Shown in pieces: positions 3,328 to 47,200 of a stretch of DNA of 48,337 nucleotides (position 1 is the first letter of the stretch; the number at the start of each line of letters is the position of its first letter). The notes beneath the pieces were generated by a model. It was not told the DNA's origin. It saw nothing but the letters and a program-made list of their open reading frames with translations, and made no database searches. The position numbers were made by a program, and so were the translations under genes. The stretch covers positions 1-48,337 of the IMG/VR virus record IMGVR_UViG_3300042484_000872; one strand, 5' to 3'. The DNA comes from a virus (taxonomy: Duplodnaviria; Heunggongvirae; Uroviricota; Caudoviricetes).

Positions 3328-3970
3328 TATATCAATAGATTCAACTAATTCTATTACAGAACTATGTCTTCTTGGAGTGAAATATCCAACAGATAAATCT
3401 CCATATAACACTGATAAGAATTTACATAAACATGCATATACATCTATATATAACCTATTATTCTCTAACATTAGATATAATAATCTACGTATAGGAGAAC
3501 TAGGTATATTAGAGAATCATTCTATGCTTTCCTGGAGAGAATTCTTTCCTAATTCTAAGTTATATGGATTTGAATGGTTTGATAGTAGATTAGATAAAGC
3601 TCTTGCTGATGGTATTGCAAATTGTGAATACACTAAGATGGATGTAACTAATCAATCATCTATTGAACAAGGATTATCTGCTGCAGGAAGTAATTTTGAT
3701 ATTCTAATGGATGATAGTACACATGTGTTTGAAGATCAAATTAAGTTTATTAATGTAGCATATAAACATTTAAAACCTGGAGGATTCCTAATCATAGAAG
3801 ATATATTTATTAGTGCTAAGGAAGAAGATTATTCAGAAGCAATAGATCATCTGTCAAGTTATTTCTCTTCTGCTACATTTATATTTGCTAATCATGATTT
3901 AAAACATTCTCCTGGATGGAACAATGATAAACTACTTGTATTACATAGAAACGATAAGCTATGTTCTTAA
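3314..3970 (+). CDS. Class I SAM-dependent methyltransferase, MycE/TylE-like sugar O-methyltransferase type
   Basis: TDK...HAY...Y, IGELGI, SMLSWREFFP, MDDSTH and LKPGGFLIIED motifs. Confidence 0.8.
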   Translation: MQINSISIDSTNSITELCLLGVKYPTDKSPYNTDKNLHKHAYTSIYNLLFSNIRYNNLRIGELGILENHSMLSWREFFPNSKLYGFEWFDSRLDKALADGIANCEYTKMDVTNQSSIEQGLSAAGSNFDILMDDSTHVFEDQIKFINVAYKHLKPGGFLIIEDIFISAKEEDYSEAIDHLSSYFSSATFIFANHDLKHSPGWNNDKLLVLHRNDKLCS

Positions 3971-4500
3971 ACATTATTACACCTTGCTCTAGACCAGAAA
4001 ACTTAGATGTTATATCTAAGAGTATAAATATTCCTAGAGATCAATATAGATGGATAGTGGTATTTGATTTATTAGAGAAACCAGGAAATATTCCTGATAA
4101 TTGTGAATGGTATGCTATCAAAGATGCTAATAGTACATCTGGCAATGCACAAAGAAACTTTGCTCTTGATTTAGTTACACATGGTCATATATATTTCAAT
4201 GATGATGATACTATTATGCAACCTAACTTATGGGATGAAATAAAAGATGAAGATGCTATAGATTTTATATCTTTTAAACAAGCAGAAAAAGATGGATCAT
4301 TAAGATTGGAAGGAAAGAATGTATCTGTAGGAAATATAGATAGTCATAACTTCATTGTCTCTGCAGAATGTGTAGGAAATACAAGATGGGTTCTTAATAG
4401 GTATGATGCTGATGGAGTATTTGCACGAGAGTGCTTTGAAAAAGCAAAAACTATATTGTATATATCCAAAATTCTTTCTGTATATAATTCTCTTAAATAA
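3961..4500 (+). CDS. Short GT2-like glycosyltransferase
   Basis: IITPCSRPENL, GNAQRNFAL, YFNDDD and YDADG motifs. Confidence 0.75.
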   Translation: MFLNIITPCSRPENLDVISKSINIPRDQYRWIVVFDLLEKPGNIPDNCEWYAIKDANSTSGNAQRNFALDLVTHGHIYFNDDDTIMQPNLWDEIKDEDAIDFISFKQAEKDGSLRLEGKNVSVGNIDSHNFIVSAECVGNTRWVLNRYDADGVFARECFEKAKTILYISKILSVYNSLK

Positions 4501-21031: not shown

Positions 21032-24000
21032 TTAACAAATTTCTTTTCTTATTTCTTTTAATATCTCACCAACTTCACTTGGTGTATATCCCATTTTAAT
21101 TAGCATGCCTAATTTAATATCATCTATGTTGTAAGCATTACCATCTTTTAATATTCTTTCAATAGTAGATTTTTCTCTAGTCTCAGCTGCAGGAGCTTCT
21201 GCTTCTTCTTGTTGAATTATAGCAACATTTGGTGTTACTCCTGTAAGAGCTAACTCAATTGCACTATCTTCCACTTCATCTGGACTTAATTGTTGTTTTT
21301 CAGCATTTTCTGTATATTGAACTTTTATAAATCCATTATCTAATACAGAAGCTCTTGATACAGTTGATAGAGGATCTAGTGGGAATGTTTTACCATAAAA
21401 CTCTTGAGCTTTAAATGAATCACCCCAAGCATTCACAGCTTTGTATACATAATTGAAATAGAACTTACCTTGGTATTCAGATTCTTGAACTAAAGGAACT
21501 CTTTTTCCATCTTCATTTACCGTGTACACTTTCTTAAACAATCCTTTTTCAACATGAGATGTATCTCCTGTTCTTCTAGCTTTAATTCTTTGAGCTTTAG
21601 TAATCTTTCCTTCTGAACTATATACAACAAAATCATTAGAACCTTCTCTTGAAAACATAGAGAATACAATCATTGGAGGAAGTTCGCCACTAAGCATTTT
21701 CTTTTCTAACTTCTTACTTAAGAATTGTTTCTCTGGATAATACCAACTATTAGGATTCTTTTTACTTTGTTGTAAGCGTCCTTTTTTAAATGTTGTTATA
21801 TTAGCATTATTCCAATTGGATCTTTCCATTATATCTAACTGTCTAAAGTCTGCTAAGTTAGGTATATTTTCTAGATTGGACAATGTTTCATTATAGAATT
21901 CTCTAAAATCTTCATAAGGAAGAAGATTAGTAAAAGCTATTGGAGAGTTTGTAAGACCAGATTGTATTACAGCTAGTCTAACAAGCTTACCATACAAGTC
22001 TTTATTCTCATCACCAAGTTTCTCTTTCAACTCTTCAAATCCATATATGATTAAGTTTTGATCATACACTTTACCATCTCTTCCTTTAATAGAAAGATTA
22101 TCTACTTGAGGAATAATCATATTCATCATCTTTCTACTTTCTTTAGGACTATATCCTAATTTAACTAGTAAAGGAATATTTATGTTTTCTCTTTTGTATG
22201 TATTACCATCTCTCAACTCATACTCATCTAATACAATCTTCTTACCGCTTTCCAACTGGATTGATTTAAGAATTAAGTTATTAAATAAAGGATGGGTTTT
22301 ATCTTTCAACACTTTATCTCTGAATTCAATAATTTCTCTAGCAGCACTTTTTTCTGTTGCTGTTCCTAATAGAATTTTCTTAACAGAATTATTTAATTTT
22401 CTATTATTCTGTACAGCCCAATCAAAAAGATCATTCACTGCTTTCTGAGAGACTTTGATGAAGTCTCTATCATTTAATCCTATGTAAGGACGTAGTACTT
22501 CTTGCATCACCTTTCTGATATTCTTTCTATCAGATATAAGAATTTCAGCAAATGCATCACGCACACCATATATAACATTAGCAAGTGGACCAACAAAAGA
22601 GTTATCAAGAATACTATCTACTGCTGGTACAACTTTATTCTCATTATCTATAGAAGAGTATATTGTATTTCTAGCTTTAGCAAGTTGTTCTTGTTTCTTG
22701 AATACTAAATATGGATCATTGATTGTAGCAGTGTCAAAGTTAGAACCTTGTGTTACTTGGAATAAATGATTAGCCATCATAGCATATTTCAAGAACTCAT
22801 CTAATATGAATTGTTGTTGAGCTAGTTCTGTAGGATTCATATTTTCAGCAGACTTGCCAATCATATCACCTAATTCTTTCTCACTAGGAATAGATGTTAC
22901 TTCTACATCTTCTCCACCTATGTAATCATATTTTACATTGTCAACAAACTTATCAATAAATAACCATGAGTATCCATTGTTTTGAATTGTCTTCAAGTAC
23001 TCACGTATAACTGGTTGGTTCATAAAATATCCAACAGTGTTTATAGGTACACCAAGTTTAACTAATAACATCCATGTAGAAGCTACGTTTGGAGAAGCTC
23101 CCATCTCCATAATCCAAGGACCTTTAGAGATATCCACATATCCATCTATGAACTGTCCTATTGTATCAGATATAAATGTTTTGTTGTCAGCACTTTTAAT
23201 TTTAGATAAAGTGGCACGGTTTCTTCCATTAACCATAATTGAGTTATACTCTTGGAATTTAATTTCAGCATCACCTAACCATTTTTTATCTACTGGATCA
23301 ATTACTGTATCTAACTTATCTGTATCAATAAATATAGGACTACGTTGATTTTGAGCATGGTTAGTTTGATTCACCGCAGCAATACCAATAGCATACTTAC
23401 CTGTAACAAATGCATGTCTAAGACTAGTCATAAATCCTCTACTCAACATATTACCTACCGCACCATAGTCAATCTCAGTCTTACCAAGTTTATTGTTTAT
23501 ATCTTTTGATAATCCTTTAAGATCATCAGCAGAGTTAGGTTTAATTAAGTTATCAAAGTTTAAGTCATTAGATATTAATGCTTGCAATGAAGTGATATAT
23601 TCATTCTCTAATGATTGTCTGTAAAGATCATTAATTACATCTTCTCTCTGTAAAGAATACTCTTCAGGGAACATACTTTCAAACAATCTATCTTCAACTG
23701 ATCCTTGTGGAAGAGCATCTTTCTTAGATTTTAAATATTCATTGAATTCTCCATTATCATATAGCTCACCAAATTTATCAACAGCTTCCTGTCCAGTTCC
23801 CAAATAAGGAACTTGCTTAGGTTTACCATCCTTGCTAGGATAGATGTTTTTCAAATAGATTGATAACTTATCAATATCAAAATCCGATCCTGCTTTCTTA
23901 ACAAGTTCTGAAGGAATAACTACTGAATCTTTATATCCTTGTGGAAGGAACTTACCTATTTCGAATACATCAATAGAGTTTTGTTTCTGTGTAGGAATAC

Positions 24001-27000
24001 GGAATGCTACACCTGTAATAGCTGCAAACTCTTTCTTACCCTCTTCTGTGTTATTGAAATAATCCATAAGAGCTTCATCAGACATATCTGATTTAAACCA
24101 TTTGGCTATCATTATCTGACAAACGTTTATTGATTTACCATTCTCATTTCTAGTATAGAATCTAAGTAGGTCAGAACTATAAACATTTTTACCTTTAACT
24201 ATTTGTTTACCAGGTCTTTTTGATTCTAATAATGTACCAGGAACCTGTACCTTCATACCTCCAGATATCTTAGGAGATACAACATTCTTATCAGCTATAG
24301 AATATAATATGTTTCTAATTTGTTGATACGCAGGAGTAGCTTCAAGAACAGTATCACCTTTCTCAAATCCAGTAAGTGCATCCGTGATATTATAATTAAC
24401 TTCTCTCTTTAAGATTTCATCTCTTAATGTATCAGTTAATTTTTTAACATTAGATATTTCAAACCCTTTAGCTGTTTGTTTTAAGCCAAGCTTTTTAAGA
24501 AGAGATTTATATCCATACTCTATCTTAGCTTGTAACATCTCTTGATTATGTTTGATATCTTTATAAAGCTCAGATTGTTCTACTTTTTGATCTTCAGATA
24601 GTTTTATCCATTTAACAAATCTTGTATTAAAATCTTCTGTAGCAGAATCAAAATCAATTGGTACACCAGCTTCCATGAAATCTAATGTAGCAAGTTTTGT
24701 TATCTGAGATCCTTGTGTTACATAAGCAGCTTCTTTAGAAGGAACTTCTGCTTGTACACCCATTATACTAAATGGTATATTTGAAACTGCTTGTTTCTCA
24801 TATATATTCACTTCATCACCAGCTTCTTCAAATGGTGTCTCATCAAACTCACCTTCATCATTATATAAAGGAGATATCTTTTCTGTACCCACTTTACTTC
24901 CTGATGCATATACAGTGTAGTCAATATTCTCTCTTTGCATCTTGTTATATAACTTGATAGCATTTGATTCAGGATTTATCTTGTATAGAAGTCTGAATGA
25001 TAAAGGAAGTAATGCAAACTTATGCATCACTACATCATTGTAGTTTCTACCATTATCTTTACTTCCAGATACAATAGGTTTTCTAGGAGTGTATGTACTT
25101 GCTACATCAGGACTATTTCTATCAAATTTTTCTATCTCTTTTGCTGTTGCTCCAGATTTAACTAATTCTTCAAAAGCAACATCATGTCTATATTGAGCTT
25201 CATTGGCTGTAGTCCATTCTCCAGAACGTATTCCAAAAATACGATTAGCTTTTAATGAAATATATCCACCACCATCTGTCTCTTCATATGGGTCATATCC
25301 TTTAAGATCACTAGCACTCATAACATCGCCAAGAGTAATAGATCTAAAGAATTCATTATTCATATCAGTGTAACCAACATCACCAGGTTTGTATCCTTTA
25401 TTATAAACAGCATCAAGTGCAGAATTAATATCCTGAGATCCAGCCATAAGAGCTTGTCTAGGAGAGTTAAAGTTTTTGATACGTTTTAACTCATCTGAAT
25501 ACTGATAAGGATCAGAATATAATAATTTATGCATTTCAATGTTAGCAATCATATAGTTAATTGATAACACTTGAAGATTATCTTTTAAACTATCTTCAGT
25601 TAATTCCACTTTATCATCAAATGCTATATCATCAATGTTTAATCCTTCAGCACCGTAGTTAATAATACTATAGTCTCTAAGAAGAGTTTCTGTATCTAAT
25701 GCATCTTTTTTAATAAATGCATTTACAGCAGCATCTATTTCAGAAGCATATCCTTTAAATTTTTCTGAAGGTTTTCCTTCATATAATTCTAAAGCAGTGT
25801 ATTTATTGTTACTTTCTTTTGTGATTTTATCATTAAGTTCTTTACCTAATATAGCTTTGAAGAAACGAAGATCTGTTGATTTGTTTCCTTTACCTTCTAC
25901 AATAAAACGTCCATCTCTAGCTAGTTCCACTTCAGATATGAAATAATTTTTGAATATTTCAATATGAGCATCATCTGCATAACTATCACTATCGATAAAG
26001 TTAAGCATCTTAACAGCCCACTCAATAGAAGCATCTCCAGGTACAAGATTTAAAAAGAATCCATCTAAGTTAAGATTTATCTCTTGTACAATTCTTTCTT
26101 TAGCTGTAAGTTTAGAAGATTCTTTTTTCTTACCATTAGCTTGATTATCTGTACCATCAATGTAGTCAGATTTCATTAAGTCTTCTGTACCAAAAATACG
26201 TTTACCTGTTCCTTTAGTAGGATGTAGGTTAAACATATTTTGCAACATTACACTTCCTTTAGCAAATGCATCTGTACGTAAGTATTTATATTGACTGTAT
26301 GCGGGATTAGTTGATAACTCATCAATATTATTTAATTTAGAAAGAACATTATGTAGATTACTCAATGTATTTACACCAATATAAGTTTGTGTACGTTCTC
26401 CATTCATGTTAAAATATGTGCTCTCAAATCCTTTATTTTCAATAAGAGCTTTTGTAAGTCCTAGTTGGAATAAACGTCTTTCAATTCCTAATGCTCTAGG
26501 TGTTAATGATGCAATACCTCTAGCAATTTTTCCTTCAGCTTCATCAGCATCTATTTCTGCCTGTGTCTTAGCCTTACCTTTTTCATTTAATCTAATGAAT
26601 TCATTTTGAATACCTTCAACAGCATCTCTAAAGTTCTCTAATTGATTGTCATTTAATTTTTTCAATGCTTTAACATCAAATGTAATACCCAACTCTTTAA
26701 GTAGAGCAGTGTAGCTTTCCATTTTTGATCCATTTAATATCATTGATCTAATCTTATCTGTAGCAAAATATCTTCCTGTTTTAGGATCATAAGAAAAATA
26801 TATTGAATTAGATTTGATTTTATCAATCATTTCATTGGTCATATCACGTTTGGCTTGTTTAGCAGAACTAGTTAATGTTGAATCACTAATAACCACTTCT
26901 CCACCAGGTAGAATAAATACAGATATTGCATCTGCATTTTGACTCTTCATAGATTTCCAGAATGCAGAAATTAATTGTATTCCATTTTGATCTAATGCTT

Positions 27001-30000
27001 TGAAATTAATATCTTCACTAGGTCCTACCTTTGTAAGTCTTTTGTATAAATTCTCATAAGTAGGATCACCCTTAGCCATATCTTTAAGTCTAGAAAGCAT
27101 GTCATCAGGATCTACAGAATCATAAAGTTTATTCTTTAGTTTAATGAACACTTCATCAGCAGGCATAAGAATAGCACCACCAATAGATGAACGTGTATTT
27201 TTTAATTCTCTTTCTCCTTTTTCATTAACTCCTATATATGATACAGGAAGTGTACCTAACAATAATTTGATAGCACCATTTGATTTTCTGAATGAATCAA
27301 TCTTTCTAGCATCTTGCCAGTCTGATTTACCAGAAGCATCTTCATCTCCTAATATAAGTTCATCGTTCTCATCAAATTCTATATTAAACGTTTTAAGCTT
27401 TGCTTTATGTTCTTTGATAATATTATCCCATTGGTCATATACATTGTTGTATAGAGCCTCAATATCATTATATTGTTTTATAGAATCTTCTACAGATGTT
27501 GCACCACTAGCAACATTATCTTCTATAAGATCTGCTTGGTGACCAATAACATCTAAGATTCTAACTTGTAACATTTCATACAGCTCTTTCTGTCTAGGTT
27601 TAACTATATCAAATAAGCTTTCTTTTCTATCAATAAGATCTTTAAGTGTGATGAATGTCATCTCTTCTATAATCTCATGTAATTGAACAGCAGGAATATT
27701 CTTCACTCTAAGGTCAGAACTAGCATCAGCTGTAGCATTCTCTATATCTATTACACCACTATTAGCATATGCTAATTGTGAAACATAAGGATTGTATGTA
27801 GCATAATATCCATTACCAATTTTATTGAATAATTCTTTAGTATTACGTTGAGCATTCTCTCCTGTAAAGAAAGATTTAATGAAGTCAATCAATTGAGAGA
27901 ATAATCTACCTATCAAACTTTTTGAAGTTATTGGTTCTCCTAATTTATCTTTAAGAACAGCATCTCTAAACTCTTCAGCAAGTTCTTCTTTAATTTGATG
28001 AGGTACAGCATCTTTATATGCTACCGTGTTCCCTGTTTCTCTATCTACAAATGTTCCTGGTCTACTTGCAAATTCTTTAAGTACTGCTTCTTTTTCTTTT
28101 GCATCAGCAAACATTTTCCATACAGCTTCAAATACCTCGTGATACACAGTACCAATTTCAGCATTCTCATATACATAGATAGCACCTTTGTGCAGCATAC
28201 CCCAAGCTTGTTTACCATTGGTAGCTTGAATGATATTCTTCACTCTATATAAAGGAACATTAGGAAGCATCTTCTTAATACCTTCTTCTAACTTAGCCCA
28301 GTCTTCACCTTGGAACTTCTTAGCTTGGTTAGCTAAAGCAACACGCATAGATGAATCATCAGGTGTTTGTCCTCTTTGTCTATTAGCAAACTTACTTGCT
28401 CCAGCAGGTTTTTGTACAGCAGGTGCAATAGGAGCAGGTGTTATAACTTCAGCAACTACAGGAGCTTCTAATGCTTGACGTATTAAATTTTCTGCTTGAG
28501 CTACATTTGTAATTAATACTTCTCTAGCTTTAGCTCCTTTAAATTCTCCAATAATACCAAGTTTTTCAAGAGCTTCTATATATCTTGCTGCTTTATTATA
28601 TCCTAGTTTAAATCTTCTTTGTAATAAAGATGCACTTCCTTGACTTGTTTCAATAACAACATTGGCTGCTTGTATTAAATCATCTATAGCTTTTCCTCTA
28701 TCTTCTTCTATTACACTATACATAATTAATTCTTCTACTGTTTTTTCATCAGCAGCTTGTACGCTTGGTGTAAATGGTGTAGCAATTGGAGGAGCAACAG
28801 GAATCTTTAATGCTTCTAACTGTGTAGAAACTTTAGCATATATATTGTTACCAATCATCTGCTGTGCTTCTGCTTGTGTAATACCTTTATCAGCCATTAC
28901 ATTTCTTAATACTTCTTGATCGTATGAAGGGAATTGAATATTAAATCCTTCTCCAACTTCATTAAACTTTTTACCATCTAATGTAAATATGATTTTACCA
29001 TACTTACCTATCTGTATAGTGTTCTCTGCTAGTCCATCTAATACAAATGTAGTTTGTGGAGCATCAGCTGCAGGTACCTTTGATTTAGTTTGGAATGCAT
29101 CTAACTGTGGTCTTAGCTTATTTAATATTGCAAAATATACTTGGTCTTGAGCTTCTTTAACATCTTTAGGTTTACTAGGATCAAGACCTCTAGCATTCAT
29201 CAATGCTGTCATTGTATCTGCTTCAAATGTAATACTGAACCCTTCTTCTTCTTTTGTATCTATAAACTTTTGTGCATCTAATGTAAAAGGAACATTACCA
29301 TACTTACCTAATTTATAATCATTAGGCTCACCTTCTAAGTTATATACTTTTGCAATAGCTACAGCTGGTGTAGTAGCAGTTGGTACAGTTGTTTTATTTA
29401 ATATAGCTAGTTGCTCATCAATATATTTATTTAAAAGATATTTACTAACAATGTTCATCACCTTAGTATTATCACCTTTTACTGCCTCAAGACTTTCTCT
29501 TAAGTCATTTTCTAATTGTACTGGTTCTAAAGTCTCTTGCCAATTTGTATATTCATCTTCATTAATTACATTAAATATTCCATCCATTAATGGTTCAATG
29601 TTTTCTTCAGTGTTGATAGCTGCTTTGATTTTTTCTAATGATGTCTTCTTAATATTAGGATCAAGTTTAGCTGTAGCTTTAGGTGCAGCTGTAGCTACAA
29701 CTGGAGGAGCTGGAATTTGATAATCATCAGAAGTTGAGTCCAATGTAAAATAGATCCCTTTCTTATTAGGAATAGCAGGATCTGTTAATGGTCTGATTTG
29801 TGTAACCAAAGGAATTTCATCATTAGTTCTTCCTTCAGATGATAATAGATATGTTTGATAGTTATCCCATTCTTTTTTGATAGGTTGACCATTCTCATCT
29901 ATACCTACTATTTCAGTGTATTTCTTTTTGAATGAATCTATATTAACTTTAGTAGCATTTACATTGTTATACATTCCTTGAAGAATAGCAATGATCTCAG

Positions 30001-33000
30001 ATTTTTTATTCTCTAATCCAGTTGGTGTAAAATCAAACCCTTCAGTTTGTAATCCTGACATGTATAATTTAGTAGAAGACTTGTTACCTTCTGTAGTAGT
30101 CTCAAACCATACATTATTGTATCCAGGATCTTTTCTTTCACCTGTTTGTGTATTTTTAGCAATACCCCAGTAGACAATAGTTTTTAACCAATTGAATAAG
30201 TATTGTGTCTCTTTTGTTTTTACAGTGCCATCTTTTGAAACATTCTTAGTTACTTGATGCATAACATCAAATATAGTGTTAGCTTCTTTCTCAGTTAACT
30301 GTCTGTTTTTTAGTTTAACTAATCCACCAGGAACTTTTAAGAACACTCTACCTTTAGGAGTTTCAAATGTCACCTTACCATAACTAACAGATTCATTAGT
30401 TGTAGCAACTACCAACACTGGATCTTGAATCAATGCTCCTTCTTCTAATAGTCCTGTAGTTTCTACAGCCACTCTAGCATCATAATCTCTTACCTCTTTA
30501 CCTTTGTCATCTAGACGTGTTACATAATCAGGAATACCAAATGATGCAGATACATCTTGTGGAGCAGGAAGAGAATCTTCTTGCAAACGATCAGTTCTCC
30601 ATTTAGCATATTGTTCTTTTAATGACTTTTGTATATACTCAGGAGTAGCTTTTCTAAACATAGAACCTCTCTCTGTTTTACCTTCAGCATCTTTATAATT
30701 AGCTTCTAGTTCAGCACTAGGAAACACTTGATATATAGCATGGTTAACTGGATCAGCTAACTGTGCAGATGTAAATGGTACACCATTCTCATCAACTAAT
30801 GTCATAGTACCATCTTCATTATCTTGTACCATTACAAGAGTGACAATAGTATTAGGATTGATAGGTTTACCATCAGCACCGATAGCTCTTCCACCATCAG
30901 TTAGATTATCCATTAACCCAGGAATAATTGAGTCTTCTGTTTTAGCTGTAACTACAACACCACGTATAGAATTTTTATTTTCAAACTTGTGCATGTTGAA
31001 ACCAAAACGATTTGCTCTTACATGATGTTCTCTAATCTTCTCACCTGGTTTACCTTTGGTAACAGCAACTGTTGAGCTAACTAAATCAAGATCATCTTTC
31101 TTAGATGAAGCTTCATAGCTTTGTTTACCAAAGAAACTTTGTACAGATTCACTGTTAGTTCCTAGGTATTCAGCACGAAGAGCTTGATCATTTTGTAATC
31201 TTCTATCCTCAGCTAATTGTTGCTTATACTTGTCAGCTATATCTTTAAATTTATTTAATATAATTTCTTTTGCTTCAATCTCTCTTTGCACTTCATCCAT
31301 TGAATCTTGCATTATAGCTAAGTGCTCAGTAAGATCTTTCAGTCTTTCTTCATTAGGAGTTACCTCACCATCTTCCATATTAGAAATGATATCATCTATC
31401 ATCTGTAAGTCAGATCTGTAATTAGGTTTAACTTTAAGGAAGTTTGGATTATCTCTTAAGAAATCAACCCAGTCTTGTCCCATAAGTCTAGGGACATTTG
31501 GATACTTAGATTCAAATGAAGATATAAGTTTAGATAAATAATCAATAGTTGAGTCTAATGCAGCTTGCACATCTCTTGATAACTTAGATAAAACAGTAAT
31601 TTGTTTCTGAGTTGTTTCTTGTAACACTTCAAGGTCTAGGATTTCATCTTGTAACTCATCCATGAAGTCTTTAAAGTTGGTTGAATACTCATCTATATTA
31701 GAAGCCATATCTGTAATATAGCCAAGAGTGAATTCAATCTCTTGTGAGTCTGTCTTTAAATCTTCTATTTCTCTTTCTAATTGGTCTTGCATTCTAGATA
31801 GACGCATAGCATTATCAAGAGCTTTTGTTGTAGCAGCTTTAAATCTAACAGCCTTTGTACGTTTATCAAGTTGAGCTTCTTCTATTTCTTTTTCTAGAAG
31901 AGTATATTCTTCTTTAGCTTTGTTAAGTTCTTGTTGTTTCTGCTCAATAGTTTTATCAAGTCTCTCTTGTTTTCCAACTAATGTATCAAACAAATCATTT
32001 AATACAGCAAGACGTGCTTCACGTTTAGCATCTATACGTGGATCTTTCTCAGCAACATATTCAGATTTTGCTTTTTGTTGAACAGCAGTTAACTCACCAA
32101 TTTCTGTAATCATAGGTTGTGTAAACCCTTTCTTTTTATTTGCTTCAGTTAATTTAAATTGATCTCCTGTAACCTCAATCTCTTTACGTTCTCCTTTTTT
32201 GTTTTTATAAACAAAAAGCATAACATCATTTTCAGGATCATATTCAATTCTACCTTTTTGTTTACCTCCAGTTTTTGCACCAAAGTTAAACTCATAGACA
32301 GTATTCCAATGTTCCATATAGAACTTGGCTTTTTTATTTTTTAATGTAGATTCTACTTTTCCAAGATTATATTTCTCTAATGTAGATTCTTTTATATCAT
32401 GTATAACACCATCTGAATCTTGCACCTTAATTGTACCATCTTCATTTCTACCTAATACAATCATTCTAGGAGCACGATATACATCTTTACCCTCTTTACT
32501 TTTACCTACCACTCTTCCTAAGAAGTATTCAGTTCCTATCTCAATATCTCTCTCACCTTTTTTAGTTTTGATAGTGATAGTTTCTTTAAGTCCTTCTATA
32601 GTTTCTTTAAAGTCTCTTCTTTCTTGAGTATAAGTTTCTGGATTAGAAATAATATCATTATAATTTTTAAGATATTCTTTTCTTCTTAATGTTAATTCAA
32701 CAGTATCTTTTAAATTTTGTTTAACTTCTGCTGTATTTATTTCAGGGTTTATATCAAGCTCAGCTAATTTATCAGCAAGTGCTGTAGATTCTGGATTAGT
32801 TAATTCTTCATTAACAATAGATTGTACATCAATACCTTGACCAACAGGAAGAGCTGACACTTGAGGAATTCTTACATCATAGTTAGCCACTTTACTAGCA
32901 GCATAAATCATTTGTTCTATAGATGCATCAGAATATTTTCTTATCTGTTCTCCTTTAGCATTCAATACAGGTTTACCATCTTTATCTTTTAATATTTCAC

Positions 33001-34939
33001 CACTATATATTAAATTAGTAGACTTATATATTTGTTCTGTATTCTTAGCTGTAGTTTCAAAGTTTGCAAGTCTAGCATTAAATGTGGCAGCTGTATCATT
33101 CTCATTAGCAAGTCCTAATTGTTTAAGAGATGCAAGTCCTTCAGTTGTCATAGAAGTTTCTCTCATATCAGAGATATCATCCATAACCATATCCATTCTA
33201 CCGTATTTAATACGTGGAGATAAATAGTTATGCATCATATCAGAATTAATATCTTTTGCTTCTAATTCATCACCTTGTAAAATTGCAGCTTCTTGTTCTT
33301 CTTGAAGTGCTACACCTCTATTTACAGCATCTAATTTATATTGGAACGCTTCTTTATATGTAGGTGCATTATTAAGTTGTTCTAAAAATTTAGTAGTGTT
33401 TGTCTTAGTTGTTTTACCCATTAGGTAATTACCCTTAATTTGCATTGCTGCTCCAGTAAGTCCACCAATAAGACCTCCTTCAAGTCCTTCTTTAGATACC
33501 AATGCTCCAACATCTTTACCAGATTCATCTGTACCAAATAATCCATAAAGTACACCATCAACCATTACATCTGCTTCTTTTCCTTGATATGCTTTATTGT
33601 AATAGTTTTGTGTTCCTACTTGTACAGCATACTGACCTATCTCCTGACCCATCTCTTTAGGATCAAATATATACTTACCTACACCTTTTGTTTTATTATA
33701 TAATTTACCAAATTTTGTTGTAGCTTCTTTAGCAACATATTGACCATTTTTTAATACAACATTATCTACCGCACCAGCTAAACTATTTGCTGCTTGTCTT
33801 TCTGCAGCATATGAACTTCCCATTAATTTAGGAAGCTGCACATATTCTGTAGCAGTTAGTAATGCCATATTAGCAAGAAAAGATGTTTTACCTACCTTCT
33901 CTGTCTGAGCATCTATCTTCTTTAACTCTTCAGCATTTGGTGCTATTCCAAAGTTACCTCTTTTATGTTGTTCAATTAATTGATTTCTAAATTCATTAGA
34001 TGTTTGCAATCCTTCAAATGCAGATTCACCACCTTGAGAATATGTAGCTATACCTATTCTTTTACCTACATCATTTATCTTTGCAAATTGATTTGTTTGT
34101 TTTGCAATTTGTGCCATTTTAGATGTTCTCTCAGCAACATCTGCTATAGAAGAAATTTCTCCTTTTAATAAAGCAGCAGCCTCAGCATTCTTACCAACAG
34201 AGAAAGCTCTTGCTGTATTTTTTAATAATGGAGCAAATGCTTTAAATGATTGTGATGCTTCCATAGTTAATGCTCTAGCTGCAGCAGCTTCACCAATAGC
34301 TGTACCTGCTACACCAAGTACTTTACTAGCCATGTTACCAGATATAACAGCACCAACAGCAAATCCACTATTTTTGATTACTTTATCAAATAGAAAGTTT
34401 GCAGTCATCCAGTTATCTCTAGAATACCAATCAGCATTCTTTTCAGTATCTGTATAATAGTTAGGTAGATATTCTTGATCCACTTTTTCATTCCATTTAT
34501 CAATTCCTTGCATGACAGGGTTATCCCATATATCTGCAAGTCTTCCTGTAAACATAGCTGATACAGCTCCACCCACTGTAGCAAATCCACCAACAACTGT
34601 TGTTGCTGCAAGATTGGTTCCTTTTAGTATACCATTTACACCTTTTGATAATGTTGATTGTTGTGCTCCCCAAGCATCTTCGTTATTAGCTCCATAGACA
34701 ACTGTATCATATCTACCTGTTAAATCTCCTGCAACATCAGATAAATAAGTTTTACCTGGTTTTAGATCATTAGGATTTATTTGACTATTCATCATATTAA
34801 TCCTATCATCTTGTGATAATGCTTTTCCTGATCTTAACCCAGGAAATCCTGTAGTTAAAGGAGTTGTGTCTATAGAACCAACGTTAGGTGTAATTGGACC
34901 TCTTACATAAGGTTGTCCTGCTTTATTAGGCTGTAGCAT
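21032..34939 (-). CDS. Giant virion-packaged DNA-dependent RNA polymerase polyprotein (crAss-like, phi14:2 gp66-type core)
   Basis: AGSDFDIDKL catalytic motif at 23867-23884 (residue 3686); upstream FRIPTQ..NS double-psi-barrel motif; 4635 aa. Confidence 0.9.
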   Translation of the reverse strand: MLQPNKAGQPYVRGPITPNVGSIDTTPLTTGFPGLRSGKALSQDDRINMMNSQINPNDLKPGKTYLSDVAGDLTGRYDTVVYGANNEDAWGAQQSTLSKGVNGILKGTNLAATTVVGGFATVGGAVSAMFTGRLADIWDNPVMQGIDKWNEKVDQEYLPNYYTDTEKNADWYSRDNWMTANFLFDKVIKNSGFAVGAVISGNMASKVLGVAGTAIGEAAAARALTMEASQSFKAFAPLLKNTARAFSVGKNAEAAALLKGEISSIADVAERTSKMAQIAKQTNQFAKINDVGKRIGIATYSQGGESAFEGLQTSNEFRNQLIEQHKRGNFGIAPNAEELKKIDAQTEKVGKTSFLANMALLTATEYVQLPKLMGSSYAAERQAANSLAGAVDNVVLKNGQYVAKEATTKFGKLYNKTKGVGKYIFDPKEMGQEIGQYAVQVGTQNYYNKAYQGKEADVMVDGVLYGLFGTDESGKDVGALVSKEGLEGGLIGGLTGAAMQIKGNYLMGKTTKTNTTKFLEQLNNAPTYKEAFQYKLDAVNRGVALQEEQEAAILQGDELEAKDINSDMMHNYLSPRIKYGRMDMVMDDISDMRETSMTTEGLASLKQLGLANENDTAATFNARLANFETTAKNTEQIYKSTNLIYSGEILKDKDGKPVLNAKGEQIRKYSDASIEQMIYAASKVANYDVRIPQVSALPVGQGIDVQSIVNEELTNPESTALADKLAELDINPEINTAEVKQNLKDTVELTLRRKEYLKNYNDIISNPETYTQERRDFKETIEGLKETITIKTKKGERDIEIGTEYFLGRVVGKSKEGKDVYRAPRMIVLGRNEDGTIKVQDSDGVIHDIKESTLEKYNLGKVESTLKNKKAKFYMEHWNTVYEFNFGAKTGGKQKGRIEYDPENDVMLFVYKNKKGERKEIEVTGDQFKLTEANKKKGFTQPMITEIGELTAVQQKAKSEYVAEKDPRIDAKREARLAVLNDLFDTLVGKQERLDKTIEQKQQELNKAKEEYTLLEKEIEEAQLDKRTKAVRFKAATTKALDNAMRLSRMQDQLEREIEDLKTDSQEIEFTLGYITDMASNIDEYSTNFKDFMDELQDEILDLEVLQETTQKQITVLSKLSRDVQAALDSTIDYLSKLISSFESKYPNVPRLMGQDWVDFLRDNPNFLKVKPNYRSDLQMIDDIISNMEDGEVTPNEERLKDLTEHLAIMQDSMDEVQREIEAKEIILNKFKDIADKYKQQLAEDRRLQNDQALRAEYLGTNSESVQSFFGKQSYEASSKKDDLDLVSSTVAVTKGKPGEKIREHHVRANRFGFNMHKFENKNSIRGVVVTAKTEDSIIPGLMDNLTDGGRAIGADGKPINPNTIVTLVMVQDNEDGTMTLVDENGVPFTSAQLADPVNHAIYQVFPSAELEANYKDAEGKTERGSMFRKATPEYIQKSLKEQYAKWRTDRLQEDSLPAPQDVSASFGIPDYVTRLDDKGKEVRDYDARVAVETTGLLEEGALIQDPVLVVATTNESVSYGKVTFETPKGRVFLKVPGGLVKLKNRQLTEKEANTIFDVMHQVTKNVSKDGTVKTKETQYLFNWLKTIVYWGIAKNTQTGERKDPGYNNVWFETTTEGNKSSTKLYMSGLQTEGFDFTPTGLENKKSEIIAILQGMYNNVNATKVNIDSFKKKYTEIVGIDENGQPIKKEWDNYQTYLLSSEGRTNDEIPLVTQIRPLTDPAIPNKKGIYFTLDSTSDDYQIPAPPVVATAAPKATAKLDPNIKKTSLEKIKAAINTEENIEPLMDGIFNVINEDEYTNWQETLEPVQLENDLRESLEAVKGDNTKVMNIVSKYLLNKYIDEQLAILNKTTVPTATTPAVAIAKVYNLEGEPNDYKLGKYGNVPFTLDAQKFIDTKEEEGFSITFEADTMTALMNARGLDPSKPKDVKEAQDQVYFAILNKLRPQLDAFQTKSKVPAADAPQTTFVLDGLAENTIQIGKYGKIIFTLDGKKFNEVGEGFNIQFPSYDQEVLRNVMADKGITQAEAQQMIGNNIYAKVSTQLEALKIPVAPPIATPFTPSVQAADEKTVEELIMYSVIEEDRGKAIDDLIQAANVVIETSQGSASLLQRRFKLGYNKAARYIEALEKLGIIGEFKGAKAREVLITNVAQAENLIRQALEAPVVAEVITPAPIAPAVQKPAGASKFANRQRGQTPDDSSMRVALANQAKKFQGEDWAKLEEGIKKMLPNVPLYRVKNIIQATNGKQAWGMLHKGAIYVYENAEIGTVYHEVFEAVWKMFADAKEKEAVLKEFASRPGTFVDRETGNTVAYKDAVPHQIKEELAEEFRDAVLKDKLGEPITSKSLIGRLFSQLIDFIKSFFTGENAQRNTKELFNKIGNGYYATYNPYVSQLAYANSGVIDIENATADASSDLRVKNIPAVQLHEIIEEMTFITLKDLIDRKESLFDIVKPRQKELYEMLQVRILDVIGHQADLIEDNVASGATSVEDSIKQYNDIEALYNNVYDQWDNIIKEHKAKLKTFNIEFDENDELILGDEDASGKSDWQDARKIDSFRKSNGAIKLLLGTLPVSYIGVNEKGERELKNTRSSIGGAILMPADEVFIKLKNKLYDSVDPDDMLSRLKDMAKGDPTYENLYKRLTKVGPSEDINFKALDQNGIQLISAFWKSMKSQNADAISVFILPGGEVVISDSTLTSSAKQAKRDMTNEMIDKIKSNSIYFSYDPKTGRYFATDKIRSMILNGSKMESYTALLKELGITFDVKALKKLNDNQLENFRDAVEGIQNEFIRLNEKGKAKTQAEIDADEAEGKIARGIASLTPRALGIERRLFQLGLTKALIENKGFESTYFNMNGERTQTYIGVNTLSNLHNVLSKLNNIDELSTNPAYSQYKYLRTDAFAKGSVMLQNMFNLHPTKGTGKRIFGTEDLMKSDYIDGTDNQANGKKKESSKLTAKERIVQEINLNLDGFFLNLVPGDASIEWAVKMLNFIDSDSYADDAHIEIFKNYFISEVELARDGRFIVEGKGNKSTDLRFFKAILGKELNDKITKESNNKYTALELYEGKPSEKFKGYASEIDAAVNAFIKKDALDTETLLRDYSIINYGAEGLNIDDIAFDDKVELTEDSLKDNLQVLSINYMIANIEMHKLLYSDPYQYSDELKRIKNFNSPRQALMAGSQDINSALDAVYNKGYKPGDVGYTDMNNEFFRSITLGDVMSASDLKGYDPYEETDGGGYISLKANRIFGIRSGEWTTANEAQYRHDVAFEELVKSGATAKEIEKFDRNSPDVASTYTPRKPIVSGSKDNGRNYNDVVMHKFALLPLSFRLLYKINPESNAIKLYNKMQRENIDYTVYASGSKVGTEKISPLYNDEGEFDETPFEEAGDEVNIYEKQAVSNIPFSIMGVQAEVPSKEAAYVTQGSQITKLATLDFMEAGVPIDFDSATEDFNTRFVKWIKLSEDQKVEQSELYKDIKHNQEMLQAKIEYGYKSLLKKLGLKQTAKGFEISNVKKLTDTLRDEILKREVNYNITDALTGFEKGDTVLEATPAYQQIRNILYSIADKNVVSPKISGGMKVQVPGTLLESKRPGKQIVKGKNVYSSDLLRFYTRNENGKSINVCQIMIAKWFKSDMSDEALMDYFNNTEEGKKEFAAITGVAFRIPTQKQNSIDVFEIGKFLPQGYKDSVVIPSELVKKAGSDFDIDKLSIYLKNIYPSKDGKPKQVPYLGTGQEAVDKFGELYDNGEFNEYLKSKKDALPQGSVEDRLFESMFPEEYSLQREDVINDLYRQSLENEYITSLQALISNDLNFDNLIKPNSADDLKGLSKDINNKLGKTEIDYGAVGNMLSRGFMTSLRHAFVTGKYAIGIAAVNQTNHAQNQRSPIFIDTDKLDTVIDPVDKKWLGDAEIKFQEYNSIMVNGRNRATLSKIKSADNKTFISDTIGQFIDGYVDISKGPWIMEMGASPNVASTWMLLVKLGVPINTVGYFMNQPVIREYLKTIQNNGYSWLFIDKFVDNVKYDYIGGEDVEVTSIPSEKELGDMIGKSAENMNPTELAQQQFILDEFLKYAMMANHLFQVTQGSNFDTATINDPYLVFKKQEQLAKARNTIYSSIDNENKVVPAVDSILDNSFVGPLANVIYGVRDAFAEILISDRKNIRKVMQEVLRPYIGLNDRDFIKVSQKAVNDLFDWAVQNNRKLNNSVKKILLGTATEKSAAREIIEFRDKVLKDKTHPLFNNLILKSIQLESGKKIVLDEYELRDGNTYKRENINIPLLVKLGYSPKESRKMMNMIIPQVDNLSIKGRDGKVYDQNLIIYGFEELKEKLGDENKDLYGKLVRLAVIQSGLTNSPIAFTNLLPYEDFREFYNETLSNLENIPNLADFRQLDIMERSNWNNANITTFKKGRLQQSKKNPNSWYYPEKQFLSKKLEKKMLSGELPPMIVFSMFSREGSNDFVVYSSEGKITKAQRIKARRTGDTSHVEKGLFKKVYTVNEDGKRVPLVQESEYQGKFYFNYVYKAVNAWGDSFKAQEFYGKTFPLDPLSTVSRASVLDNGFIKVQYTENAEKQQLSPDEVEDSAIELALTGVTPNVAIIQQEEAEAPAAETREKSTIERILKDGNAYNIDDIKLGMLIKMGYTPSEVGEILKEIRKEIC

Positions 34940-42852: not shown

Positions 42853-43374
42853 TTATAATGTTACGTGTTTCCAATTTCTATTTTTTATAACATGTCCAAT
42901 TAATCCAAAGCTTACATTGTATTCTTCTGCTAATTTTTGTAAAGTATATTTTCTTGGTATATACTTTTCTCGTATCTCAACTACTTGTTCTTCAGTTAGT
43001 TTAGAAAGATAATGTTTACTACCTTTAGATTTATTACCTCTACCATCTTTTATCATTTGTTGAGAGTTCATTTTTAATGTTCCCCATTGTAAATTATCTG
43101 CTTTGTTATTTCTTCTGTTATTATCTAAATGCATTACAATTGGATAATTTTCAGGATTTTCACAAAATACTTCAGCTACAAGTCTATGTATTCTCTTCAT
43201 CCATTTTTTATTATGTATATGAACTTCTACAAAATTATAATTAATATCTGCAGGAGAGTCAATGTATTCTCTTAATATTTTACCTTTATTTCTAATACCT
43301 GCAGATCTAATCTTACCAAGATTACTTGCTTCATATAAATTATTTAAACTAGGTATTGGTTTCCAATTTTCCAT
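42853..43374 (-). mobile_element. Free-standing NUMOD4-HNH homing endonuclease with C-terminal HTH
   Basis: WKPIP..NNLYEASNLGKIRS (NUMOD4); HRLVAEVF...HLDNNRRNNKADNLQW (HNH_3); SKLTEEQVVEIR...LAEEYNVS (HTH). Confidence 0.9.
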
Positions 43375-43381
43375 AAGTATT

Positions 43382-44254
43382 TTATTTATAACTTATCATA
43401 GCAGGAGTTAATATGAATTGACTTACTAGATGCGTTGTATTACTGTTGTCTAAGATATGACGAATTTTAAGCTCCTTGGCTCTTAGCGTAGCTTTCTTGA
43501 AGCTTCTAGGACCATAATCCATATTAGCTTGATTCACCACCTTATCTATAGAAAGACTTTCACAAGAATTTCTAAATAAAGGAATTTGAGAACTTATCTC
43601 TGCAGCCCAGAATGTATTGTACTGATAGAAGTTATCACTCTTAGTGTAAGTGATAGTTTTACTTTCAGTATTAAGAATAGGGTATTGCATATACGCTTGC
43701 ATGTTGTGAAGAGGTTTAGCTACAAGTTCTAATATCCCTGAACTCTGTTGTCCATTATATAGAACAGCTTTGTTAAACCATTTGTTATTTGTTTCTATTC
43801 TTGTATTGTAATTAAATACACCATCTAATATAGGAAGATATTCATATGCTTTTGTATAATCTTTTACATTCTGAAGAATCTCATCTTGGAATTGATACGC
43901 AAAAGGATATTCAATTATATATGGTTCTATGTTCCCATAGAAATAATTATATAATCTTATATTAGTTAAATGTCTCCACAGACAAGCTGTTACAGATTGT
44001 GTAAATGTTGAGTCTACAAATTGGGTTTGACTAAATGTTTCTAAAGAAAATGTTCTTATTGTATTACATTTTCCTGTAGATGTTAAAGTTAACAATTTAA
44101 CATTGTTATTCACTATATAACTTATACCACGTATCAGAGTTTTCTTAGATACATCTACAGCAATAACATCTCCATACTCAGTGGTGATAGTAAATGGACC
44201 AGCATTAGGTCCAGCCTTTGTTAATTTTATTGTTATAACTTTTGTCTTTGCCAT
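43382..44254 (-). CDS. Tail structural protein (C-terminal-part homologue of crAss-like tail stabilisation/muzzle proteins)
   Basis: LWRH...YNYFYGNIEPYIIE, FNKAVLYNGQQSSG and YQYNTFW motifs; follows the large tail gene. Confidence 0.6.
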   Translation of the reverse strand: MAKTKVITIKLTKAGPNAGPFTITTEYGDVIAVDVSKKTLIRGISYIVNNNVKLLTLTSTGKCNTIRTFSLETFSQTQFVDSTFTQSVTACLWRHLTNIRLYNYFYGNIEPYIIEYPFAYQFQDEILQNVKDYTKAYEYLPILDGVFNYNTRIETNNKWFNKAVLYNGQQSSGILELVAKPLHNMQAYMQYPILNTESKTITYTKSDNFYQYNTFWAAEISSQIPLFRNSCESLSIDKVVNQANMDYGPRSFKKATLRAKELKIRHILDNSNTTHLVSQFILTPAMISYK

Positions 44255-44258
44255 AATA

Positions 44259-47200
44259 TTAAATAGTGGTTGTAGTAGTGGTGGTAGTTATATTATCATT
44301 ATCAGTAATAGAACTTGGTACACAACTTCCAATTTGTGTTGCAGAATTAGTAATTATTCCTAAATTAGTTATAGCAATTAAATTATAAGGACTTATTCTA
44401 TTCACTGTATATGAATCTCCTAATGCATCTGTAAAAGATATGTTACAATCACATTCATAAATTGATGTAGCATTAATTGAACCAATGTTTAAATCTAATT
44501 CAATTGTAGATGTAAGATAATCATATTGTGTTATATAATAATCTGAAGATATTGAGTCTTGATTTATTACAAGAAGTTTTCCTCCTGTAGTATATAATAA
44601 ATTACCATAAGCAGCTCTATCTAATTGTAATGTAAAGATAGTAGTAGAAGATGCAGTTAATGTAGTGATGTCTAATTCTACAACTTCCTGTAAAGACGGT
44701 GTATCATTTATAGCAATTAATGTTGTAGTGTTTAAAGCAACAATTCCAGATGAAGTAGTAAATCCTACAGGTAGAGTTATTGTTCTATTATAGAATGCAC
44801 TGAATGGACTTAATGTAATATCCCACTCTATGATATCTGTATTGATAGACCACAACTTAGTTGATGTCATAGCTATACCAAGTGAGGCAGTGTAGCCTGG
44901 AACTGATAATAATGTCATATCGCTAATTCCTATATTATTTGAATAAATGTAATCTCCTGAACTAAATAAAATTCCACAACATTCTTCAATGATTGATACA
45001 ATAGTAGTAGTGCTACTTGTAGTTCCACAATCACAACTTCCTATTTCAGTTATCACTCCATCTAAAATGTAATAAGCAATGTTATCGTAAGCACTTTCAT
45101 CTGTATAATACCAACCATCAGGAACTAAATCACAACTTGTACTATATATATTATCATACATAATTTGACCTAATTCAAGACTATTTCCATTTGCAGTGAT
45201 AAGTGTTGGAACAAAGTCTAATAATACATCATTGTATATAGATATTGCTGCACATGCATCTGTTATACTTAATGTTGAATCTACAATAGGATCTGTACCA
45301 ATTTGATATCCTGATACAAATGTATATGAATTAAATGTAAATGGTCTTTGACAAATAGTAGTAGTAGTTGTAGGAGGTACAGTAATTAATCCTGTTCCAT
45401 CCAATATACAATCTGTAAATATACCTACACCTTCTAATGTACAGTCTATACCAATTGTGGTAGTACTAGTTGTTGTCATAGGAGTTTTTGTAGTGGTTGA
45501 TGCACTTGTATCAAACTTACCTGTGTTCTCACCAATAAGCATTGTGAAATCACCTTCAATATCTGTACAACATCCATTGATACCAGAATAGAAAAAGTTA
45601 TTCTCTCCAATATACCAATTAGGAATATAACTATGAAAACTTACCCACGTCTTAGTATTAAAATTAAATGATATTGTCCAAGATTTATTACAGAAATATT
45701 CAGGATCATTAAGATATACTTGTGTTCTGAACAATGTATTATTACTTAAATATTCTACATAGAACTCTTTAGTAACTGAATCATATTTAACATCTTTATC
45801 AATAGGTATATAATCTAATTTAGTAAGAATAACTCTATCAAACTTACTATCATATACACCATGTAAACCAATACCATTGAAATTATTATCTGTATCAACA
45901 CCTGGTATACTTACTAATTGTCCATCTACCATAATTTGTGTAGTTGGAAAATATCTTAATATTTCAAATGCTAAATGATCTGTAAAAAATCTATTCATAC
46001 CAGAACCAAATGCAGAAAGATCTACAGCTTCAGTTCCTGAAATTAAGAACACTTGTCCTCTCTTAGCATCTACAGTGATTTGTCCTTGAGGAATTTTTAA
46101 TAACATTCTATTCTGACTTCCTACATATCCAAGATCTGTTTCAGCAAAATCAATAGGAGGTGCTCCTGCAAACAATGAAGGATTACCCAAATAAGCTGCT
46201 TGAGGATTACTTGTATTCACTGTAAGTAAATTATTATACAACAATGACTTATTTTCAAACCTAGCTAATACAGCTTTATTCTGAATACCATCTAATGATA
46301 TAAGTGATCCATAGTTTTGAGGAAAATCATATAATGAAACTGGTTTATATGTTAACCAGTTATTTACTCTTACATCTGCATTAGTTATTTGTGGATCAGA
46401 ATATATTGCTCTAAATGGAAAGTATGTAAAGCAAAGTTGTTGTGTCCAATCAGGTGGTAAATATGTAAATGTATTTTCTTTATTCTGTTTAGAGAATGTT
46501 ACATTATAATAATATGTATTATCTTGAGCAATAGGAACAAAAGTTTCTTGTACCCAATCATCAGGAATACTTGTACTAACATGAGGCCAGAAATCTCCTT
46601 CTTTATTATTAAACGCTTGTCTAAGATCTACATTGTAAGAACTCTCACAATAGAAGTTAGGAATACCATATGCAAACAAATAGAAGTATCCATCATAGAA
46701 TGTTCTATTAGGATTAACATCTGGTGGTCCTGGTTCTTGATCATTAGGACAATCAAAGTTATGAGCTTTATATGAAATTATATTAGCAAGAATACCAGTT
46801 TCTTGTACTGCATAATTTTTAAGAATCGATCTAGCAGAGTGCCAATATTTTGGATAAGCTATGTTACCAATCTCATCATAAAATATATCTGAATCATTTG
46901 GAGCATTAACTCTATTATCTATAAAGAAAGGGAGTTTTGTTTTAAATGCAAATCTACTAATGAATGTATCTCCACCAAAAAGTGTAGCAGAACCAAGAAC
47001 ATTACCAGGAGTAATCATTCTTTGGAATCCTGTATCTACTGTTTCATATGAATACACTTGTCCCCATTGATTATCAAATATATTTTTTATTGAAGCATAA
47101 TATGAAACAACACTTATATCTTGTTCTTGAGCAGGTTTAGAACAAACTCCACTATCCGAAATAGTTATTCTTGATTTATCAGTTACAATAGATTCAGTTC

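Follow-up and report, generated by a model that had tools for sequence, protein, structure and literature searches.

The crAss-like virion RNA polymerase (RNAP) polyprotein encoded in a stretch of viral DNA (Caudoviricetes; IMG/VR record IMGVR_UViG_3300042484_000872) contains a true FtsK gamma winged-helix domain, with a match to this family that is far beyond chance. This domain forms the core of a cassette that is optional and swappable rather than an invariant component of the enzyme. The stretch analyzed here, hereinafter the window, is 48,337 nucleotides long, comprises the initial 48 kb of a 112-kb viral record and is AT-rich (guanine plus cytosine, GC, content ~31%). Judging from the fold and the contact surface, we predict that the gamma cassette is a motor-less, optional accessory of the ejected polyprotein that binds double-stranded DNA (dsDNA), a reading to which we assign a probability of about 0.55.

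An FtsK gamma domain in a giant virion RNA polymerase polyprotein

An earlier note on this DNA, made from the sequence alone, identified the domain by its resemblance to the FtsK/SpoIIIE gamma consensus, and profile searches bear out this identification. The minus-strand translation of window positions 28514-28684 yields exactly the 57 residues quoted in that note, which are residues 2086-2142 of a giant open reading frame (ORF) of 4,635 aa; the frame is unbroken, as seen both in the ORF list and in the translation (Table 1). Residues 2090-2144 match the Pfam family FtsK_gamma (PF09397) with an E-value of 6.8e-21 and a score of 74.2 bits, compared with the curated gathering cut-off of 30.6 bits, and this is the sole significant Pfam family across the whole protein. 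A six-frame profile search of the 112-kb genome recovers the same locus with 81.8 bits. When the domain was compared with the PDB sequences using phmmer, the matches were exclusively FtsK gamma chains, namely 2ve8/2ve9, 2j5o, 2j5p and the XerD-gamma fusion 5dcf (E-values from 7e-8 to 5e-6).

The structural model agrees with the sequence searches. An AlphaFold2 model of residues 2060-2185, built from seven phage copies of the domain, has a core predicted local distance difference test (pLDDT) value of ~85, and its top 13 Foldseek matches are all FtsK gamma domains (root-mean-square deviation, rmsd, 0.9-1.4 Å over 56-58 columns; target template modeling score, TM, 0.71-0.88; probability 1.00), with MarR/ArsR-type winged helices following next. 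The winged-helix fold assumed in the earlier note is thus recovered, so that neither of the two outcomes by which that note would have been refuted (lack of a significant HMM match, or another type of fold) was seen, and the Pro/Ala-rich flanks that it described around the domain are real in the alignments. The Pfam model stops at the REVL motif, and beyond its end the phage module extends into an additional C-terminal helix (ITNVAQAENLIRQAL), which is kept in 6 of the 7 aligned phage copies (the copy in the relative P0035 is divergent) and has the consensus ITDxAQAESLIRQ.

The domain is internal to the protein, is present in a single copy per chain and is not located at the C-terminus of an alpha/beta motor. 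Neither an FtsK_SpoIIIE domain nor any other motor domain was detected by Pfam in the 4,635-aa protein, and the six-frame search found no second gamma copy and no FtsK translocase in the 112-kb record.

The assignment of the carrier protein rests on homology to the virion proteins of characterized crAss-like phages. The giant ORF belongs to a cluster of giant virion/cargo genes contained in the window. In tblastn searches, the C-terminal half of the giant protein matches g066 of phage phi14:2, annotated as “catalytic RNA polymerase subunit” (E-value 6e-15), and the “putative RNA polymerase” of crAss001 (E-value 1e-11). BLASTP aligns residues 2965-3980 with residues 661-1656 of phi14:2 gp66 (E-value 3e-24), and in this alignment the DFDID motif at residues 3686-3690 falls exactly on the catalytic 1361-DFDID-1365 of gp66. 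At the N-terminus, a weak match to phi14:2 gp67 was obtained (BLASTP E-value 0.004). A phmmer search with the C-terminal 2,486 aa returned zero matches among the PDB sequences, and therefore the RNAP identity is taken from the tblastn and BLASTP comparisons with phi14:2 and crAss001. The 5 kb around the domain had no megablast match in the phage collection.

From these sequence similarities, we conclude that the giant protein is a crAss-like virion RNAP polyprotein, in which a gp67-like half appears to be fused to a half that combines a zincin-like motif with a gp66-type two-barrel RNAP. The designation of the carrier as a virion RNAP polyprotein in the earlier note stands, given the homology to RNAPs and the alignment of DFDID with that of gp66. 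The homologues from phi14:2 have been detected in phi14:2 virions by tandem mass spectrometry (MS/MS). Furthermore, it has been reported that gp65, gp66 and gp67 are joined as a single “huge polyprotein” in some crAss-like phages (bioRxiv 10.1101/2020.03.07.982082). By analogy with the phi14:2 virion proteins, and given the position of the gene within the block, the giant protein is predicted to travel in the virion, to enter the cell with it and to transcribe early genes.

A swappable cassette in a variable linker slot

The conserved stretch that follows the domain is present in at least 555 giant proteins, 120 of which were listed for comparison, and PF09397 is found in 6 of these 120 relatives (~5%). 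Presence in homologous phage RNAPs, a check suggested in the earlier note, is thus limited to about 5% of them, with other cassettes or none in the rest, an optionality which that note overlooked.

The cassette consists of 333 nt (~110 residues) and includes an N-terminal helix, the winged helix-turn-helix (wHTH), the extra C-terminal helix and a part of the Pro/Ala linker. It occupies a slot in the linker that joins the gp67-like half to the half containing the zincin-like motif and the RNAP. Among relatives with ~80-98% identity, this slot is filled by at least six unrelated cassettes or is empty. Relatives with 78-93% identity in the conserved stretch immediately past the slot are readily aligned to either side of the domain and have entirely different sequences between “...LEALKIPVAPPIATPFTPS” and “SKFA(N/S)RQRG...”. 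Among 69 relatives, the length of the slot ranges from 0 to ~250 residues. In the 31 closest relatives, the slot is empty, is taken by a coiled-coil filler, or contains a single module or two in tandem, drawn from a set of at least six unrelated ones; these are a helical module with the motif EYDNFIDNG, a QEGVDW module, a small beta module with NIGKEITAV, a SDINSAIDRR module, one further unique insert and the gamma module. The replacement is most clearly seen at the DNA level in the nearest relative (L084), where the flanks are 85-95% identical to those in the window and ~45 nt of unrelated linker are found in place of the 333-nt cassette.

The turnover of the cassette is also apparent from the phylogeny. 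In a maximum-likelihood tree of the backbone (1,200 residues, 38 proteins), the six gamma carriers are scattered and require six changes, all six of which are forced by well-supported branches. For example, the carrier P0022 is the sister of P0026, which has a different cassette, and the respective branch lengths are 0.004 and 0.012. The location of the module is nonetheless constant: in each of the seven carriers, the distance from gamma to the downstream YHExx[H/E] motif is 110-199 residues, and that to DFDID, also downstream, is ~1,500-1,700 residues. In P0006, gamma occupies the same architectural place within a backbone that is otherwise almost unalignable, with similarity detectable only in a short stretch of the RNAP. 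Taken together, these observations mark the junction linker as a hot spot of recombination, into which small autonomous modules are taken up.

Origin and evolution of the module

The earlier note regarded the domain as a captured cellular module. This origin is not supported by the search results. A search of 1.84 billion representatives produced 12,548 matches, with the best identity at 59%; the top matches are small or medium proteins, many of them with 2-3 tandem gammas, and are metagenomic singletons. A scan of 185,579 species genomes yielded one confirmed locus, an FtsK/SpoIIIE-type gene in a metagenome-assembled genome (MAG) of Bacilli, with 65% identity over 49 aa. Neither collection yielded a close cellular donor, so that no bacterial source can be named. 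The module has its nearest relatives, in the same extended form, in giant proteins of other phages, and the GC content of the cassette equals that of the phage. Among the viral contigs of IMG/VR, 173 gamma loci were confirmed, in ORFs of 75 to ~4,000 aa. The module is therefore best seen as part of a phage/mobile-element pool and not as a recent capture from a host FtsK.

The cassette (28424-28756) was compared with the copies in L085-L088 to estimate divergence. The synonymous divergence (dS) of the module is 0.13-0.45, compared with 0.35-0.73 for the backbone in the same phage pairs, suggesting that the exchange of the module among lineages postdates the split of the backbones. Conversely, the ratio of nonsynonymous to synonymous divergence (omega) is 0.3-0.9 for the module compared with 0.16-0.29 for the backbone, indicating faster evolution of the module protein. 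For the window compared with P0004, for example, the module has a dS of 0.14 vs 0.63 for the backbone and an omega of 0.90 vs 0.16 for the backbone. The excess of nonsynonymous over synonymous change in the module is modest, with uncorrected p-values of 0.005-0.06 in cross-subtype pairs that are not independent.

The possibility that the module is a functionless passenger, in the process of being gained or lost in a linker that tolerates insertions, has to be considered in light of its patchy distribution (~5% of the relatives), its rapid turnover on the backbone tree and the omega values of up to 0.9 in some pairs. Against this, 20 columns, including those of the functional surface, are invariant in the seven phage copies, which are 39-65% identical to one another; every copy has an intact fold and an uninterrupted frame; the module recurs at the same architectural position in the near-unalignable P0006; and omega is below 1 in all pairs. 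We consider a passenger status quite improbable.

Simple purifying selection was also considered as an argument for function and was rejected because the omega of the module exceeds that of the backbone. The faster evolution of the module protein is in line with an accessory role or one in host interaction, and arguments based on strict conservation lose weight accordingly.

The DNA-contact surface and the predicted function

In Escherichia coli FtsK, the contacts with KOPS (FtsK-orienting polar sequences) are made by N1296, R1300 and E1303, and it has been shown that the triple mutation abolishes KOPS recognition (PMC2533119). In the HMMER alignment to 2j5p, the equivalents of all three residues are present in the window copy (GYNKAARYIE). 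The earlier note proposed, on the basis of the domain, that gamma would provide the ejected RNAP with sequence-directed loading on DNA or help pull the genome in, which implies a KOPS-like directional reader of a strand-polarized 8-mer. The retention of the N, R and E equivalents in the window copy is compatible with such a role. However, the alpha/beta motor of FtsK is missing from both the protein and the genome, there is one gamma per chain whereas one KOPS site is read by three gammas (PMC5052618), and the equivalent of R1300 is lost in three of the seven phage copies. A scan of the 112-kb phage genome for a polar word lends no support either: the only strongly skewed 7- and 8-mers (AAGAAGAA, AAAAGAAA and similar words) are purine-rich, track the coding strand and change sides where the two divergent gene arms meet. 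In this genome, none of the words shows a convincing skew toward a single absolute strand. Directional reading of this kind accordingly appears highly improbable, and sequence-directed loading and genome pull-in are not favored by these data.

We propose instead that gamma is an optional dsDNA-binding accessory. After ejection, the cassette would hold the polyprotein, or a processed fragment that retains the cassette, on duplex DNA. This duplex would most likely be the incoming phage genome, and such tethering might help to start early transcription. In vitro, the templates used by phi14:2 gp66 have been found to be restricted to DNA that is single-stranded or denatured, and a search for an early promoter motif gave none. 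Engagement of the duplex thus seems to be a need that a dsDNA-binding accessory would fit. Because the nearest relatives lack the cassette, it would be an adaptive add-on, outside the core mechanism.

Several observations weigh against this proposal. The equivalent of R1300 is Gly or Ala in the three copies mentioned above. A single gamma per chain, as opposed to the three that read one KOPS site, suggests that specificity and affinity may be low. The other cassettes found in the slot have no Pfam family, no usable Atlas neighbors and no match to any DNA-binding family. Gamma is absent from ~95% of the relatives, so that the polymerase must be able to work without it. Change at the protein level is also more rapid in the module than in the backbone. 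Finally, the positions that never vary in the seven phage copies, Q-R and G-Y-N, are also part of the peptide that contacts XerD, so that their conservation cannot separate DNA binding from XerD binding.

This last point leads to a different potential partner. It has been demonstrated that a nine-residue peptide of E. coli FtsK, RQFRIGYNR (1289-1297), activates XerD when tethered, and that R1289 is critical (PMC5052618). The window protein reads RRFKLGYNK at the aligned positions. Gamma could therefore be a host-directed mimic that copies the surface of host FtsK touching XerD and activates or sequesters XerCD, or a related recombinase, outside cell division, with the effect that the resolution of chromosome dimers is disturbed or the host recombinase is recruited to phage DNA. 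The invariance of Q-R and G-Y-N, together with the variation of the base-contacting R1300, is in line with such a mimic, although the same surface binds DNA and the pattern is ambiguous in this respect. The rate of protein evolution, faster than that of the backbone, is likewise as for a host-interaction module, and host-directed effectors are common in polyvalent proteins, i.e., giant multi-domain proteins that are injected along with the DNA of a phage or plasmid (Iyer, Burroughs, Anand, de Souza and Aravind, 2017, J Bacteriol, PMC5512222). On the other side, the activation of XerD by gamma is partly species-specific; only a few copies would be delivered per virion; no tyrosine recombinase that could be the phage-side Xer partner was found in the 112-kb record, although CheckV rates this record as 62% complete, such that the absence is not proven; and any benefit to a lytic phage is hypothetical. 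On balance, we regard XerD mimicry as unlikely.

A third option is that the domain acts before the infection starts, as an anchor inside the virion that binds the packaged genome in the capsid and orders the exit of protein and DNA. The dsDNA-binding fold and the fact that the carrier is, by homology, a virion-packaged cargo protein are compatible with this scheme. The cassette is, however, dispensable in the closest relatives that have the same virion genes, and nothing links the domain to a genome end, which makes a role of this kind very doubtful.

The accessory function in duplex binding remains our preferred interpretation of gamma. A broader idea, which we present as speculation that is rather unlikely to hold, is that the junction linker is a dedicated “payload slot”, loaded by recombination with small interchangeable modules, and that gamma is a host-interaction device which hijacks host XerCD/FtsK or targets the polymerase to duplex DNA. 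If this were the case, the modules in the slot would reach the host among the first phage proteins to enter the cell, and the slot would offer a handle on how crAss-like virion RNAPs, which in vitro accept single-stranded templates only and for which no promoter is known, engage the genome.

Feature coordinates and the neighboring segments of the polyprotein

Table 1. Features of the giant ORF and of the gamma cassette. Coordinates refer to the window; residues are numbered along the 4,635-aa protein.
Feature	Residues	Coordinates	Strand	Evidence
Giant ORF, predicted crAss-like virion RNA polymerase polyprotein		21032..34939	-	ORF list, translation, tblastn/BLASTP to phi14:2 g066 and crAss001 RNAP genes
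N-terminal region	128-447	33599..34558	-	tblastn to crAss001 “putative RNA-polymerase subunit”, E-values 5e-12 to 3e-15
Two tandem ~95-aa modules (KYGN/KYGK...FTLD...KF)	~1866-2050	28790..29344	-	Self-overlapping BLAST hits, alignment
Whole gamma cassette	2062-2172	28424..28756	-	DNA alignment with L084, protein alignments, translation check
FtsK_gamma winged-helix core	2090-2144	28508..28672	-	Pfam, E-value 6.8e-21; genome search, 81.8 bits; PDB sequence and fold matches
Extra helix past REVL	2145-2158	28466..28507	-	Alignment; model helix H87-99
HEVFE within YHEVFEAVW	2267-2271	28127..28141	-	Conserved in fetched relatives
gp66-homologous region, two-barrel RNAP core	2965-3980	23000..26047	-	BLASTP, E-value 3e-24; tblastn to crAss001 and phi14:2 RNAP genes
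Catalytic motif DFDID	3686-3690	23870..23884	-	Alignment to gp66 1361-1365

The segment downstream of the slot contains the motif YHEVFEAVW, located 122 residues after the gamma core and near-invariant in ~120 fetched relatives, with minor variants such as HEIFE. A profile of this region matches P0006 (hmmsearch E-value 4e-8), where the sequence reads YHEAFHGVF, i.e., contains a canonical HExxH. No HExxH is present anywhere in the 4,635-aa protein of the window, and neither Pfam nor the PDB profile search provided support for a peptidase in the HEVFE region. The AlphaFold2 model of this region is of low confidence (pLDDT 57), and Foldseek produced only insignificant matches to lethal factor, ArdC and PPEP-3 (E-values of 1 or greater). 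Homology between the HEVFE region and the zincin of phi14:2 gp65 was not detectable. The motif and its counterpart in P0006 suggest that the region might be a zincin-derived domain in which the second metal-ligand His was replaced by Glu in this lineage.

The family also accommodates other accessory Pfam domains, namely DUF7831 (PF25176), NADAR/DUF1768 (PF08719) and the 2-oxoglutarate-Fe(II) (2OG-Fe(II)) oxygenase domain (PF13532), in the relatives P0010, P0019, P0029, P0033, P0036, P0043, P0082 and P0100. In P0010, DUF7831 is located near the C-terminus (residues 4548-4656). These domains suggest polyvalent-like behavior of the RNAP polyprotein family at more than one position.

The tandem ~95-aa modules, which immediately precede the slot, are of unassigned family and are separated by Pro/Ala/Thr linkers; from overlapping BLAST hits, their number seems to vary among the relatives. 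In the relative P0004 (4,532 aa), DFDID occurs twice (residues 3326 and 3584), compared with once in the others, which may be the result of a local duplication. Elsewhere in the window, an HNH endonuclease ORF (42853-43374, minus strand; phrog_59, E-value 4e-38) sits next to the ORFs 43382-44254 and 44259-48335. These two ORFs match consecutive positions of phrog_15100 (1537-1587, then 1589-1778), i.e., a single virion-protein family, and this layout suggests a large structural gene that was split by, or at, the insertion of a homing endonuclease.

Implications and comparison with known systems

In gut and aquatic habitats, the crAss-like phages rank with the most abundant viruses. Because near-identical phages exist with the gamma cassette, without it or with another cassette, the optional dsDNA-binding module offers a natural comparison for experiments. 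The slot also shows that module shuffling in the style of polyvalent proteins takes place on a crAss-type polymerase polyprotein, with at least six unrelated modules swapping among backbones for which the branch lengths in the tree indicate an identity close to 98-99%. The advance is modest in that each component was known before and the function is deduced from the fold and the contact residues.

Compared with the gamma domains of FtsK/SpoIIIE (PF09397; 2j5p, 2j5o, 2ve8, 2ve9, 5dcf), the window domain belongs to the same family (74 vs 30.6 bits) and has the same fold (~1 Å rmsd), and shares both the N/R/E residues of the KOPS contact and the R-x-F-x-x-G-Y-N surface that binds XerD and DNA. 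Unlike the gamma of FtsK/SpoIIIE, it is internal, motor-less and presumably non-hexameric and has the extra conserved C-terminal helix, and some of the sister phage copies lack the R1300 equivalent.

In other phages, gamma is found in the FtsK-like translocases of actinophages and in the small terminase subunits of Bacillus phages, where the same wHTH is reused as a portable DNA-binding module. These proteins act in replication, segregation or packaging inside the infected cell, whereas the window gamma rides on a virion-delivered RNAP. Among the 304 phage-collection records with a gamma match, there are no Crassvirales.

The closest characterized counterpart of the carrier is phi14:2 gp66, with ~1,000 homologous residues (E-value 3e-24), an aligned DFDID and the same place in the virion gene block. 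Phi14:2 differs in that gp65, gp66 and gp67 are three separate genes and there is no FtsK gamma domain. Furthermore, the zincin motif of phi14:2 (HEIMH) is in gp65, downstream of the RNAP, whereas the zincin-like HEVFE of the window protein is upstream of the RNAP part.

The architecture is most similar to that of the polyvalent proteins, being a giant multi-domain ORF (RNAP plus wHTH) in a virion gene block, the product of which is predicted to enter with the DNA. In the survey of these proteins, the FtsK wHTH is listed among the rare domains “predicted to bind dsDNA”, and N4-type (T7-like) virion RNAPs are described as fused to a metallopeptidase and accessory domains (PMC5512222). The earlier note held that the fusion had not been described; this is too broad, given that the FtsK wHTH in injected polyvalent proteins was listed already in 2017 (PMC5512222), albeit not for crAss-like RNAPs. 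Among the papers searched, none describes gamma on a crAss-like RNAP. There are also differences from the polyvalent proteins. The RNAP considered here is of the crAss-like two-barrel type, and the term “crAss” is absent from the 2017 account (PMC5512222); no canonical HExxH peptidase and no LPD Pfam domain were detected in the giant protein; and gamma occupies one defined slot in which unrelated cassettes alternate. An independent case, a classical polyvalent protein with gamma, is encoded in a 40-kb IMG/VR contig (L028:184-12162); this 3,993-aa protein combines ART-PolyVal, MuF_C, LPD3 and FtsK_gamma with a weak DUF3990. Another ORF, of at least 2,990 aa (L017), has gamma at residue 932 and DFDDD at ~2165 and is of an unassigned kind.

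Thus, precedents exist for the domain, for its occurrence in giant proteins that are injected and for the polyprotein itself; what appears to be new is the presence of gamma on a crAss-type virion RNAP polyprotein, in a newly documented cassette slot.

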